11,318 nt of DNA from a virus (lineage: Duplodnaviria > Heunggongvirae > Uroviricota > Caudoviricetes): positions 1 through 11,318 of the IMG/VR virus record IMGVR_UViG_2778261301_000003; one strand, given 5' to 3'. How positions within the stretch are numbered: position 1 is the first letter of the stretch; the number at the start of each line of letters is the position of its first letter. Positions 2,829-5,444 of the stretch are shown here, one piece after another. Position numbers and translations under genes: made by a program. The notes under the pieces were generated by a model. It had not been told where the DNA came from and searched no databases. It saw only the letters and a program-made list of their open reading frames with translations.

Positions 2829-2863
2829 ACCGCGTTGTCGGCGGTGCAGATTGATAAAGAGCG
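2829..2863 (-). promoter_or_regulatory. nutR (boxA plus P22-type boxB)
   Basis: On the minus strand, boxA CGCTCTTTAT (2854-2863) is followed 8 nt later by the hairpin ACCGCCGACAACGCGGT (2829-2845) with a GACAA loop, between cro and cII. Confidence 0.6.
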
Positions 2864-2870
2864 GTGTTAC

Positions 2871-3071
2871 TTATGCAGTTGTTTTTTTGTTGCTTGGGAA
2901 GGGCTTTATTTCTTCCGCATAAACGCTTCCATCAGCGTTTATAGTTAAAAAAATCTTTCGGCCTGCATGAATGGCCTTGTTGATCGCGCTTTGATATACG
3001 CCGAGATCTTTAGCTGTCTTGGTTTGACCAAAGCGCATTGCATAATCTTTCAGGGTTATGCGTTGTTCCAT
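2871..3071 (-). CDS. cro: Cro repressor (66 aa)
   Basis: Protein [66 protein letters not shown] is essentially lambda Cro (from memory); GGAGG SD upstream of the start at 3071. Confidence 0.95.
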
Positions 3072-3097
3072 ACAACCTCCTTAGTACATGCAATCAT

Positions 3098-3161
3098 TAT
3101 CACCGCCAGAGGTAAAATAGTCAACACGCACGGTGTTAGATATTTATCCCTTGCGGTGATA
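3098..3161. promoter_or_regulatory. OR operator cluster (OR1, OR2, OR3) with divergent pR and pRM
   Basis: TATCACCGCCAGAGGTA (3098-3114), CAACACGCACGGTGTTA (3122-3138) and TATCCCTTGCGGTGATA (3145-3161) match lambda OR1/OR2/OR3. The cI ATG at 3172 sits right at the expected pRM leaderless start. Confidence 0.9.
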
Positions 3162-3171
3162 GATTTAACGT

Positions 3172-3885
3172 ATGAGCGCAAAAAAGAAACCGTTAACACA
3201 AGAGCAGCTTGAGGACGCACGTCGTCTTAAAGCTATTTATGAAAAAAAGAAAAATGAACTTGGCTTATCTCAGGAATCTGTCGCAGACAAGATGGGGATG
3301 GGACAGTCAGGTGTTGGAGCTTTATTTAATGGCGTCAATGCATTAAATGCTTATAACGCTGCATTGCTTGCAAAAATTCTCAACGTTAGCGTTGAAGAAT
3401 TTAGCCCTTCAATCGCCAGAGAAATCTACGAGATGTATGAAGCGGTTAGTATGCAGCCATCACTCAGAAGTGAGTATGAGTACCCTGTTTTTTCTCATGT
3501 TCAGGCCGGGATGTTCTCGCCTGAGCTTAGAACCTTTACCAAAGGTGATGCGGAGAGATGGGTAAGCACAACCCAAAAAGCCAGTGATTCTGCATTCTGG
3601 CTTGAGGTTGAAGGAAACTCAATGACAGCTCCGGCAGGATCGAAACCAAGCTTTCCTGATGGAATGTTAATCTTGGTTGACCCTGAGCAACCTGTTGATC
3701 CTGGTGATTTCTGTATCGCTAGACTTGGTGGTGATGAATTCACATTCAAAAAACTGATCAAAGATAGTGGGCAAGTGTTTTTGCAACCACTTAACCCGCA
3801 GTTTCCAATCATCCCATGCAATGAGAACTGCAACATTGTAGGCAAGGTTATCGCCAGTCAATGGCCTGAAGAGACGTTTGGATAA
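3172..3885 (+). CDS. cI: cI repressor (237 aa, LexA-like autocleaving)
   Basis: Near-identical to lambda cI from memory ([53 protein letters not shown]...), with the Ala-Gly cleavage site (VQAGMF) and the Ser/Lys dyad context ([12 protein letters not shown]). Confidence 0.97.
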
Positions 3886-3892
3886 CACGTAA

Positions 3893-4330
3893 ATGATTAA
3901 AGAACGTATTTCTTATATCATTCCGATTGCGATGGATGAAGGCAACCCCGTAACTCCAGTTCTTATCTATGAAATGGATAAAGACTCCCATGAAGTGGAT
4001 CTGTCATTTGGCGCTTTTTTTATCGGCCTTAAGGCTACAAAAAAATATTCCATAGGCATTGAGGTTTTCAATGCTCAAGAAATACCGATACCAATTGACA
4101 CAAAACTGTACTCCAACCATAAGTTTTTTACGGTAGCAGAAGCCAACGATGGAGAAACCATCGTATCAACTTCTATGAGAATTAACTTCCCAAGGGTGAA
4201 AATTATCAAGCCTGGGATATTCGAAGTTAGAGCATCACTGGTTAATCCTGAGAAAGGCGAAGTAATTGATGTAAAAAGTTCGTTTTTTGACGTGAAGATA
4301 ACAGGATCAGTTCGCGATGAGTTTAGATAA
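3893..4330 (+). CDS. Hypothetical soluble protein (145 aa) in the rexA-equivalent position
   Basis: ATG 7 nt after the cI stop with no obvious SD, suggesting coupling to cI translation. No TM segment or signal peptide; hydrophobic/polar alternation suggests a beta-rich fold. Not RexA-like by size (145 vs 279 aa); no recognisable catalytic motif. Confidence 0.6.
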   Translation: MIKERISYIIPIAMDEGNPVTPVLIYEMDKDSHEVDLSFGAFFIGLKATKKYSIGIEVFNAQEIPIPIDTKLYSNHKFFTVAEANDGETIVSTSMRINFPRVKIIKPGIFEVRASLVNPEKGEVIDVKSSFFDVKITGSVRDEFR

Positions 4331-4688
4331 CAAGGTTGCTCAGCTTCGTCCAAATCAAAACATATCTCGCCCAATTGGACACTATTCCACTGATGATGCA
4401 TACTCTCGGCATGGTGGAGGAAACGGCGGAGGTAACATGCTTGAGGCTAGAGTTGCAAAGCTAGAGTCTGATGTTGAATACATCAAGCGCGATCTCGCTG
4501 AGGTAAAGTCAGATATAAAATCTGTTGATTCTCGTCTGTCAGGTATTGAGACAAGCATTAGCTCAGCAAAAACCACCATTAAGGCATCTGCGGTCGTTGT
4601 CAGTTTCGTGTTCGCATTTTGCGCCTACATTTTTGGAAGTTATGTATCCAAAATCCTTGATGCCTTAAACGGACTCGTTCTTAAGTAA
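4317..4688 (+). CDS. Hypothetical tail-anchored membrane protein (123 aa): Gly-rich N-terminus, coiled coil, single C-terminal TM helix
   Basis: ATG at 4317 overlaps the upstream stop (4328-4330). An alternative start at ATG 4437 with GGAGG 4 nt upstream would give 83 aa. Heptad-like segment LEARVAKLESDVEYIKRDLAEVKSDIKSVDSRL, then hydrophobic AVVVSFVFAFCAYIFGSYV. Architecture resembles XhlA-like or holin-like small membrane proteins (from memory, unverified). Confidence 0.6.
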   Translation: MSLDNKVAQLRPNQNISRPIGHYSTDDAYSRHGGGNGGGNMLEARVAKLESDVEYIKRDLAEVKSDIKSVDSRLSGIETSISSAKTTIKASAVVVSFVFAFCAYIFGSYVSKILDALNGLVLK

Positions 4689-4694
4689 CACACA

Positions 4695-4721
4695 ACCCGG
4701 CCTCAGTGCCGGGTTTTCTTT
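4695..4721 (+). terminator. Intrinsic terminator closing the cI operon (t-imm equivalent)
   Basis: Stem ACCCGGC/GCCGGGT (4695-4701 and 4708-4714) with loop CTCAGT, followed by TTTTCTTT. Confidence 0.7.
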
Positions 4722-4872
4722 GCCTCTCGATCCCCCCCTCCCAACAACACATAACCATTTGTATTTATTGGAAAACTAATAGATACAACTTGCTAAACAG
4801 TGCAATTCTGATCCCTCACCTACCTAACAATTCACCCCTGCAAAAAATAAATCCATATAAAAAACATACAGA

Positions 4873-4935
4873 TAACCATCTGCGGTGATAAATTATCTCT
4901 AGCGGTGTTGACACAAATACCACTAGCGGTGATAC
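4873..4935 (+). promoter_or_regulatory. OL operator cluster (OL3, OL2, OL1) with pL promoter reading rightward
   Basis: AACCATCTGCGGTGATA (4873-4889), TATCTCTAGCGGTGTTG (4893-4909) and TACCACTAGCGGTGATA (4917-4933) are lambda-type 17-mers. pL -35 TTGACA (4907-4912) and -10 GATACT (4930-4935), followed by the conserved ACATCAGCAGGACGC start region. Confidence 0.9.
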
Positions 4936-4981
4936 TAAACACATCAGCAGGACGCTGGAAGCCAAACGGAACAGATTGGCA

Positions 4982-5016
4982 TGCTCTTTAACTTCGATGG
5001 GGCGCTGACAAAGCGC
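4982..5016 (+). promoter_or_regulatory. nutL (boxA plus P22-type boxB)
   Basis: boxA TGCTCTTTAAC (4982-4992) and boxB hairpin GCGCTGACAAAGCGC (5002-5016) with a GACAA pentaloop, in the pL leader upstream of N. Confidence 0.7.
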
Positions 5017-5135
5017 AAACAGATACCAAACGAGATGGGTTTGGCGGTGATGTGAATTGCAGATGCAACGACAGCAACCAGAAGATCAGCACCTGGCGCA
5101 TCACCACCAAAGCCATTTCACATGAGGAAAACATC

Positions 5136-5444
5136 ATGACGGTAATCGTGTACGGAAAATCAACATTTGCAGGAAATGCCAAAACTCGCCGTCATGAGCG
5201 GCGCAGAAAGCTGGCTATCGAGCGTGATTCCATCTGCAACATCATCGATTCGATCTTCGGCACAGACAGTGAGGAAGATGTTCAGGAAGAACCGAGAAAG
5301 CGTTTAAGTCTTTCTGAAAAAGCAATATCACTCGGCATCATCAGTAAATCAAATACAGATGCGAATGGCGGAAGCGTTTGTTTGCCTGAAGTTGCACTGT
5401 ATGCTGCTGGTTACAGGTCAATGAAATCAATTACGGCGAGATAG
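5136..5444 (+). CDS. N: Antitermination protein N, P22 type (102 aa)
   Basis: N-terminal arginine-rich motif GNAKTRRHERRRKLAIERD matches the P22 N boxB-binding peptide (from memory). Start at ATG 5136 with AGGAA SD; the track's 130-aa ORF from 5052 runs into the nut leader and is rejected. Confidence 0.85.
   Translation: MTVIVYGKSTFAGNAKTRRHERRRKLAIERDSICNIIDSIFGTDSEEDVQEEPRKRLSLSEKAISLGIISKSNTDANGGSVCLPEVALYAAGYRSMKSITAR

Follow-up and report, generated by a model that had tools for sequence, protein, structure and literature searches.

The window, the whole 11,318-nt stretch of DNA analysed here, contains a lambda immunity cassette at approximately 2871–4955, set between nut sites and an N gene of the P22 type. 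The cassette comprises cro, the operators OR1–3 with pR and pRM, cI, two cargo open reading frames (ORFs), a timm-like terminator, and OL1–3 with pL. The cro gene (2871–3071, minus strand) encodes a protein identical to lambda Cro at 65 of 66 residues, with 97.0% identity at the nucleotide level. The 237-residue CI repressor (cI, 3172–3885, plus strand) is 95% identical to lambda CI in amino acids and its gene 90.8% identical in nucleotides; the two proteins are of equal length, align over all 237 residues with no gaps, and differ at three positions within residues 1–92. Across the region separating cro from cI, 99 of 100 nucleotides are identical to lambda.

The right operator/promoter region (3096–3161) holds OR1 (3098–3114), OR2 (3122–3138) and OR3 (3145–3161), all identical to their lambda counterparts. 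The left region (4874–4936) holds OL3 (4874–4890), also identical, together with OL2 (4894–4910) and OL1 (4918–4934), each carrying a single C-to-T substitution at operator position 10 that is also present in the wild lambda-immunity phage mEp332. The operators are arranged as OR3-OR2-OR1 and OL3-OL2-OL1 with spacing identical to lambda, overlapping pRM/pR and pL. A promoter scan returned TTGACT-17-GATAAT at 3124–3096 on the minus strand and TTGACA-17-GATACT at 4908–4936 on the plus strand, both matching the hexamers found at the equivalent sites in lambda. We take these hexamers to be lambda pR and pL, from general knowledge and the annotation of HK544, which also suggests that the pL transcript starts at 4943. 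With four of the six operators identical and one substitution in each of the others, the proposal in a preliminary description of this DNA that cI, cro and both operator sets are essentially those of lambda is borne out. CI, Cro and the operators place the window in the lambda immunity-specificity group, for which homoimmunity is predicted.

Two overlapping small ORFs of 145 residues (3893–4330) and 123 residues (4317–4688) occupy 3893–4688 on the plus strand, as cassette cargo in the slot of lambda rexA/rexB. Nucleotide comparison found no homology to lambda or P22 over 3882–4693. The two ORFs match phrog_5893 and phrog_6136, families with no assigned function, and a PADLOC search of them gave nothing convincing, with a single CorA-like match at E = 0.0046. 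The 123-residue protein has a hydrophobic helix at its C-terminus, and a matching ORF pair is present in E. coli FHI_NMBU_03 and UMNF18. A speculative reading, which we regard as unlikely, is that the pair may be transcribed from pRM and provide a novel form of exclusion. A timm-like intrinsic terminator, identified by terminator scan (4694–4715, plus strand), begins the left block of lambda homology (4694–4955), and the corresponding site is annotated as Timm in HK544 and HK106.

The N gene (5136–5444, plus strand) encodes a 102-residue antitermination protein of the P22 gp24 family, which matches Pfam PF25694 (N_peptide) at 123 bits over its full length and also phrog_271. Its start is the ATG at 5136, rather than the program-called GTG at 5052. 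The protein is 69% identical to P22 gp24, compared with 24% to lambda N; by part, identity to gp24 is 95% over residues 1–42 and about 51% over the C-terminal 60 residues. With the C-terminal part this divergent, contacts of N with Nus factors and polymerase are an assumption, and the protein is predicted to be active and to override terminators. Residues 13–31, GNAKTRRHERRRKLAIERD, are identical to P22 gp24, in agreement with the earlier claim that N carries the P22 arginine-rich motif. Residues 14–31 coincide with the first 18 of the 19 residues of the PDB 1A4T peptide, the 19th being S instead of T; a search of PDB sequences with N returned chance matches alone, its library minimum of 20 residues placing this 19-residue peptide outside its scope. 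RefSeq lists N as a ‘hypothetical protein’ in three relatives (FHI_NMBU_03, UMNF18 and LR-60), an annotation that could be improved.

The nut sites are of the same type as N and are placed canonically: nutL is flanked by pL and N, and nutR by cro and cII. The nutL boxB, GCGCTGACAAAGCGC (5002–5016, plus strand), reproduces the P22 nutL boxB base for base and is the 15-mer RNA of PDB 1A4T, the P22 N-peptide/boxB complex, as quoted in PMC11480772. The nutR boxB, ACCGCCGACAACGCGGT (2829–2845, minus strand), is likewise a base-for-base copy of its P22 equivalent, so that the P22-type boxB elements with GACAA loops proposed at these positions are exact. RNA folding gives each a hairpin with a 5-bp stem. 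That of nutL closes a GACAA pentaloop at −7.1 kcal/mol, while the minimum-energy fold of nutR (−5.9 kcal/mol) has a 7-nt CGACAAC loop and not a clean pentaloop, yet this is P22’s own sequence. Each boxB occurs once in the window, against shuffle expectations of 0.03 (nutL) and 0.00 (nutR) matches with two mismatches allowed. Upstream of the boxB elements lie the nutL boxA, TGCTCTTTA (4982–4990, plus strand), and the nutR boxA, CGCTCTTTA (2855–2863, minus strand), the latter the same as the P22 nutR boxA; they are the sole two boxA matches in the window. Elsewhere, the nutL boxA is CGCTCTTTA in P22 and GGCTCTTTA in the Stx2a phages and phage phiKp_30, and the lambda nutR boxA is CGCTCTTA. An Rfam scan of the whole window returned no family at threshold and is neutral on the nut sites.

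Just downstream of the nutR boxB, the predicted fold of 2765–2870 (minus strand) contains a strong hairpin that runs into a U-rich tract (2793–2823), a candidate tR1-like terminator that could be a substrate for N. The hairpin sequence is kept in the Stx2a phages, SH2026Stx1 and phiKp_30. Every element named in the preliminary description is found where it was placed, give or take a few bases, and the combination is as described, with N and nut of the P22 type and operators of the lambda type.

Alignment against the lambda and P22 genomes maps the breakpoints of this mosaic. Apart from a segment at the 3′ end of cII and oop, lambda nucleotide homology is confined to two blocks, at 2857–3881 (92.9% identity) and 4694–4955 (89.3%). 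The left joint falls within CATCAGCAGGACGC (4942–4955, plus strand), a 14-nt stretch that takes in nucleotides +1 to +13 of the pL transcript and that lambda, P22 and every other type in the comparison share. Lambda identity stops at 4955 (+13 of the transcript), and phiKp_30/P22-type identity starts at 4942. The right joint falls within 2855–2878, from the last cro codons and stop through the end of the nutR boxA. Right-flank identity starts at 2878 for Stx2a phages, 2876 for SH2026Stx1 and 2864 for phiKp_30. The position of 2857 given by BLAST against lambda was refined, as lambda and P22-type sequences are alike through boxA and the diagnostic bases 2870 and 2865, between the cro stop and boxA, are already of the Stx/P22 type. 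In lambda-immunity prophages whose boxB is of another type, divergence sets in just past boxA. The joints had been expected to separate OL1 from nutL and cro from nutR. The first placement holds, as does the second with respect to the nutR boxB, but the right joint extends into nutR itself, where boxA is a shared linker and boxB alone is type-specific. In these alignments, the nearest relative switches abruptly within short sequences common to both parental types, as expected of lambdoid module exchange.

Outside the cassette, the closest N/nutL (96.9–99.1%) and nutR/cII (97–99%) flanks are those of Stx2a phages (e.g., LC616031) and the Klebsiella phage phiKp_30 (LC768498). Stx2a phages match both flanks at 96.9–98.2%, with one of them 97.3% identical over 2472–2878, and phiKp_30 matches 4942–5695 at 99.1% and 2776–2864 at 98.9%. 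In contrast to the window, these phages carry other immunity regions between near-identical N/nut flanks. P22 itself is ruled out as the direct donor by 73.5% nucleotide identity over N/nutL and by indels in the leader. On these comparisons, ‘P22-type’ is a family label and not a donor. On the right flank lies a cII-family activator gene (2468–2764, minus strand), whose 98-residue product matches Pfam PF05269 (Phage_CII) at 118 bits and is 42% identical to lambda CII. This protein is itself a hybrid, its N-terminal approximately 78 residues being unlike lambda CII and its last 20 lambda-like, and the DNA at 2242–2530 is 83% identical to lambda.

The nutL-N and nutR-cII segments flank the cassette and both best match the same non-lambda-immunity phages, and a single double crossover therefore explains the mosaic. 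This event would have moved a lambda cro-cI-OL cassette between the two flanks, with both crossovers in lambdoid-conserved stretches, namely the opening 13 nt of the pL RNA on the left and the segment from the cro stop to boxA on the right. Cassette movement is the simplest history and makes two coordinated N/nut swaps unneeded, although neither the number nor the direction of exchanges is provable from a handful of genomes. The preliminary description held that N and its RNA targets had been exchanged together within a lambda immunity region. The pairing of lambda immunity with P22-type N/nut stands, but the implied direction is probably reversed.

The alternative, that N-nutL and nutR entered a lambda-like genome from a P22-type phage by two coordinated replacements that left its immunity region in place, would leave an identical final sequence pattern. 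Small patches are evidently exchangeable, as the P22-identical part of nutR spans just ~45 bp (2827–2876) and the adjoining cII is itself hybrid, resembling lambda at its 3′ end. We nevertheless consider it unlikely, as it requires four crossovers in place of two, and the 97–99% flank matches to the same non-lambda-immunity phages reach well past the nut sites (2472–2878 and 4942–5695). Moreover, beyond the two lambda blocks and the segment at the cII 3′ end and oop, the window is almost without lambda homology, and its replication and recombination genes are not those of lambda.

The junctions recur in natural isolates. A search of 5,426 complete E. coli genomes found the whole left junction in 17, and 16 of these also have the whole right junction, which no further genome has. 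In the odd genome, UMNF18, cro is truncated by a deletion, which explains the sole apparent exception to the co-occurrence of nutL and nutR. In five genomes the left match ends just before boxB, and the same five are those in which the right match ends just after boxA; this identical set at both junctions indicates that nutL and nutR types are always matched. A set of 50,697 phage records yielded no instance of the same junctions. The combination of lambda immunity with the P22-type arm is thus present in approximately 0.3% of complete E. coli genomes and absent from those phage records. A strict exact-pattern search for the OL1/pL/P22-leader junction, with one genome per species, gave no matches; the genomes chosen to represent the species evidently do not carry this prophage, and the search is uninformative on spread outside E. 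coli.

This recurrence bears on whether the window could be an assembly chimera or a laboratory lambda/P22 hybrid. Such hybrids were reportedly built in the laboratory (Botstein and Herskowitz, in 1974), which counts toward an artefact. Yet both junctions recur at 94–100% identity in 16–17 complete E. coli genomes of independent origin, the sources being humans, pigs, poultry, beef and wildlife. No laboratory parent fits, as divergence from laboratory lambda is 7% in the lambda part and divergence from P22 is 26% in the N part. An artefact is effectively refuted, with negligible remaining probability. It is also very unlikely that the window belongs to a decaying cryptic prophage in which N/nut no longer works and the pairing is functionally meaningless. 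The visible stretch is just 11.3 kb and some relatives are clearly degraded, as with the truncated cro of UMNF18. Against this, the cII, cro, cI and N ORFs are all full length, the window retains in intact form all six operators, the two promoters, each boxA/boxB pair and the terminators timm and oop, and the arrangement is kept at 97% in other genomes. We read this region, with a probability of roughly 90%, as the part of a natural lambdoid prophage that governs its early regulation, in which a lambda immunity cassette and P22-type N/nut antitermination would be two independently assorting modules.

The closest known systems are the prophages of those 16–17 complete E. coli genomes, which have the identical arrangement. 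An example is that of strain FHI_NMBU_03 (NZ_CP019455.1, 404.5–407.5 kb), in which cII-nutR-cro-cI-two ORFs-OL-nutL-N is collinear with the window and 97.4% identical over 2428–5443, with both joints the same. It differs in carrying a DnaB-type helicase, as opposed to the DnaC-like loader of the window, and other recombination genes, and its N is 81% identical to that of the window, with the C-terminal half diverging. The wild phages HK106 and mEp234 (EF120461 and EF120460) also combine the lambda cI/cro/operator cassette with GACAA-loop boxB flanks, and share the cII type, the cassette boundaries and the nutL boxB of the window. However, their N has 127 residues with an HK97-like arm, GNSRSRRRERLKAKA, their nutR boxB is TCGCTGACAAAGCGA, and hicAB occupies the rex slot.

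Lambda (NC_001416), HK544 and mEp332 resemble the window in cI, cro, OR1–3, OL1–3, pR, pL and timm. Lambda is unlike it in its N arm (MDAQTRRRERRAEKQAQW), boxB (GCCCTGAARAAGGGC), rexAB cargo and cII, O and P. The Salmonella phage P22 (NC_002371) has an identical gene 24 arginine-rich motif and identical copies of both boxB elements, at the same positions relative to pL/N and cro/c1, but it has its own c2/cro immunity, a longer pL leader and a gp24 that diverges in its C-terminal part. The lambda cassette is paired with at least five N arm/boxB combinations, at least four of them besides the P22-type one in the window. With the same boundaries, it is joined to a lambda-type N/boxB in HK544 and mEp332, to the HK97-like arm in HK106, and to two further types in E. 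coli LR-60 and AR_0017. These comparisons used GenBank records EF120455, EF120456 and EF120461 and the P22 genome directly.

Following the lambda/P22 paradigm, CI and Cro would bind the lambda operators and set immunity, and on derepression pL would transcribe nutL and N. Through its arginine-rich arm, N would then bind the boxB hairpins, with their GACAA loops, in the RNAs being made from pL and pR. Together with boxA-bound NusB/S10, NusA and NusG, this would produce a termination-resistant RNA polymerase, whose readthrough would reach the recombination genes to the left and the cII/replication genes to the right.

The pairing of a lambda switch with P22-type N/nut is an ordinary product of module shuffling, an already known case of textbook lambdoid mosaicism. 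The window entails no new mechanism and provides a clean natural example of lambdoid phages trading immunity and antitermination specificities separately. Because the boxB sites lie just outside the joints, N and both of its targets stay together automatically. The layout, with nutL and nutR just outside the immunity cassette, thus keeps N matched to both RNA targets. The conserved bounding stretches, one opening the pL transcript and the other running from the cro stop to boxA, may even be kept as dedicated recombination linkers besides serving transcription or Nus-factor binding, a tentative suggestion to which we give low odds. If this were true, any immunity cassette would fit between any matched nutL/nutR pair, and N would never be parted from its targets.

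The early regulatory region of the window, whose gene order is the reverse of lambda's orientation, joins a lambda-type immunity switch to P22-type antitermination. Cro (2871-3071, minus strand) matches lambda Cro at 65 of 66 residues, and CI (3172-3885, plus strand) is 95% identical to lambda CI in a gap-free alignment of proteins of equal length. At the DNA level, cro is 97.0% identical to its lambda counterpart and cI 90.8%, and the cro-cI intergenic segment agrees at 99/100 positions. OR1 (3098-3114), OR2 (3122-3138), OR3 (3145-3161) and OL3 (4874-4890) are identical to the lambda operators; OL2 (4894-4910) and OL1 (4918-4934) each differ by a single C-to-T change at operator position 10. 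Both variants recur in mEp332 (GenBank EF120456), deposited in a collection of wild lambda-immunity phages that is reportedly that of Degnan et al. 2007. A promoter scan placed pL at 4908-4936 (TTGACA-17-GATACT) and pR at 3124-3096 (TTGACT-17-GATAAT), and the same scan identified a timm-like terminator (4694-4715) and an oop-like terminator (2492-2519, plus strand). Against the lambda reference, nucleotide homology of the regulatory core comprises only two blocks, 2857-3881 (92.9%) and 4694-4955 (89.3%), with a third at 2242-2530 (83%) spanning the cII 3' end and the oop region.

The N-family gene lies on the plus strand at 5136-5444. The mechanical ORF list opens its frame at GTG 5052; a start at ATG 5136, with GAGGA upstream, yields a 102-residue protein that can be aligned with gp24, the N protein of P22, from the first residue to the last. 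This protein shares 69% identity with gp24 and 24% with lambda N, and Pfam PF25694 (N_peptide) covers it completely at 123 bits. It is closest to gp24 at its N-terminus, with 95% identity over residues 1-42, about 51% beyond, a single difference in residues 1-31 and an identical arginine-rich arm, GNAKTRRHERRRKLAIERD. The specificity of gp24 follows its N-terminal part and the boxB sequences (PMC8022706). Both boxB elements, nutL GCGCTGACAAAGCGC (5002-5016, plus strand) and nutR ACCGCCGACAACGCGGT (2829-2845, minus strand), are exact copies of their counterparts in the P22 genome and fold as 5-bp RNA hairpins. Each occurs once in the window, against chance expectations of 0.03 (nutL) and 0.00 (nutR) with up to two mismatches allowed. 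The nutL boxB is identical to the 15-mer RNA in the solved structure of the P22 N-peptide/boxB complex (1A4T); N residues 14-31 equal the first 18 of the 19 residues of the peptide in that complex, and at the last position N has S where the peptide has T. The only boxA matches in the window lie upstream of the two boxB elements: TGCTCTTTA at 4982-4990 (plus strand) in nutL, the rrn-operon form of boxA, and CGCTCTTTA at 2855-2863 (minus strand) in nutR. In P22 the nutL boxA is instead CGCTCTTTA, and Stx2a-converting phages, Klebsiella phage phiKp_30 and the E. coli prophages of LR-60 and AR_0017 have GGCTCTTTA there, so the first boxA base is variable among otherwise near-identical leaders. With all lambda-type and P22-type elements found where they had been described, including essentially lambda cI, cro and operators, the P22 arginine-rich motif and P22-type boxB at both nut sites, the preliminary description is confirmed in full as an observation.

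The joints of this mosaic fall in short conserved linkers. On the left, alignments against lambda and P22 types show lambda-like sequence as far as CATCAGCAGGACGC (4942-4955) and P22-type sequence beyond, in agreement with the proposed joint between OL1 and nutL. This stretch is common to all lambda-group and P22-group sequences and, by analogy with the HK544 annotation, would correspond to about positions +1 to +13 of the transcript from pL. On the right, BLAST identity to lambda extends to 2857 because lambda and P22-type sequences are similar through boxA. A joint placed at 2857 on that basis needs refining, since the diagnostic bases between the cro stop codon and boxA are already of Stx/P22 type. 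Moreover, Stx2a-phage identity starts at 2878, within the final cro codons, and lambda-immunity prophages with other boxB types equal the window through boxA and diverge directly after it. These features define a joint interval of 2855-2878; the claim of a joint between cro and nutR thus holds near the end of cro, but the interval takes in the nutR boxA. The boxA is part of the shared linker, with boxB as the type-specific element.

N and its RNA targets had been proposed to be exchanged together into a lambda region. They are indeed kept together, but this history requires two separate replacements, whereas both flanks (nutL-N and nutR-cII) match the same phages of other immunity, so that a single double crossover suffices. 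phiKp_30 is 99.1% identical to the window over 4942-5695 and 98.9% over 2776-2864, and Stx2a-converting phages are 96.9-97.8% identical on the N side and 97.3-98.2% on the nutR/cII side, with a different immunity region between these flanks. P22 is ruled out as donor (73.5% nutL/N DNA identity, leader indels, about 51% in the C-terminal part of N). We therefore infer that the lambda-type immunity cassette was moved in one event, with one crossover in each of the two conserved linkers.

This cassette also sits between other N/nut types. HK544 and mEp332 pair a lambda-type N arm with boxB GCCCTGAARAAGGGC, and HK106 (EF120461) pairs an HK97-like arm with a GACAA-loop boxB. The HK106 nutL boxB is that of P22 and the window, but its arm is GNSRSRRRERLKAKA versus GNAKTRRHERRRKLA; one boxB sequence is thus naturally paired with two clearly diverged arms. 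Two lambda-operator prophages have arms and boxB unlike those of lambda, P22 or HK106: LR-60 (NZ_AP027570.1; arm DDNARNRRRARRQAQREQ, boxB TCCCGCCGAAATGCGGGA at both nuts) and AR_0017 (NZ_CP024886.1; arm GTSASRRRARRANLQ, GAAAA-loop boxB GGCTGAAAAGCC and TCGCTGAAAAGCGA). The AR_0017 operators are noticeably diverged (12 differences from lambda in 82 nt across OL), which may give this prophage an immunity specificity other than lambda's.

A 161-nt query from OL3 to the nutL boxB matched 0 of 50,697 phage records at ≥80% coverage and, at full coverage, 17 of 5,426 complete E. coli genomes. The complete right query (nutR boxB to cro) was found in 16 genomes, all among these 17; in the seventeenth, UMNF18, a deletion truncates cro. 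In five genomes, the same five on both sides, the left match ends just before boxB and the right match just after boxA. The nutL and nutR types are thus always matched. E. coli FHI_NMBU_03 (NZ_CP019455.1) is the best relative: it is collinear with the window over 2428-5443 at 97.4% identity, and its annotation lists N simply as a 'hypothetical protein'. The window overall is a unique mosaic, whole-window coverage reaching at most 37% in any phage record and 55% in any complete E. coli genome.

Two overlapping plus-strand ORFs of 145 and 123 residues (3893-4330 and 4317-4688) occupy the rexA/rexB place between cI and the timm terminator, so their expression in the lysogen is expected. Their PHROG matches, phrog_5893 and phrog_6136, both lack functional annotation; neither gave a Pfam match above threshold, and PADLOC returned nothing convincing. 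In the second, a coiled-coil region weakly resembles XhlA, and there is a hydrophobic helix at the C-terminus. The pair (WP_000588959.1, WP_000050904.1), a candidate two-gene exclusion system, recurs in FHI_NMBU_03 and UMNF18; in LR-60 the first ORF is paired with another second gene. The cII-family gene (2468-2764, minus strand) is hybrid: its first ~78 residues are unlike lambda CII (42% overall) and 97% identical in nucleotides to Stx2a phages, whereas its last 20 residues, together with the oop-type terminator that overlaps it, resemble lambda, indicating a further joint inside cII. Just right of cII, the replication module (694-2435, minus strand) encodes an O-like initiator (281 residues, three direct VSKLETxN repeats) and a DnaC-like loader (303 residues); FHI_NMBU_03, the closest relative in the immunity region, instead has a DnaB-type helicase, making this another module swap. 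Directly after N, an 88-residue ORF (5447-5713, plus strand; phrog_20899, without functional annotation) is shared with phiKp_30 and carries a CxxC...HxxxxH zinc-finger-like motif, with weak, below-threshold zf-Di19 and zf-C2HC_2 matches. The early-left operon also contains three adjoining plus-strand genes at 7085-9788, where related genomes instead have annotated Erf- or Rad52-type annealases: a 322-residue Glu/Ala/Lys/Arg-rich coiled coil (E. coli relatives label it 'TolA' or 'coiled-coil'), an AAA_24 ATPase (8524-9204) and a 195-residue protein without Pfam match (9201-9788).

All cis and trans parts of the lambda-type switch and the P22-type N/nut system are intact and in canonical positions. 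Following the lambda/P22 paradigm, CI and Cro would act at the operators; upon derepression, the arginine-rich arm of N would bind boxB on both early transcripts and, with NusA, NusB/S10 at boxA and NusG, render RNA polymerase termination-resistant. Downstream of the nutR boxB, at a distance of 5 nt, is a strong hairpin, UAAUCACUCAUCGAAAGAUGAGUAUUAGUGA (2793-2823, minus strand), with UUAUUU after it; this element is kept in Stx2a phages, SH2026Stx1 and phiKp_30. A simple terminator scan of the window did not call this hairpin, a possible first rightward terminator and intrinsic tR1 analogue.

In lambdoid phages, immunity and N/nut specificity assort independently. Early operons are pervasively mosaic, and P22-like phages have several different predicted early-antitermination-protein and repressor specificities (PMC2629481). 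GenBank records of wild phages that combine lambda immunity with non-lambda nut sites date back to 2007, and the exact arrangement of the window is already present in public E. coli genomes. The mosaic is thus real and was correctly interpreted, yet ordinary and already known; under either history, its architecture holds N and both of its targets together.
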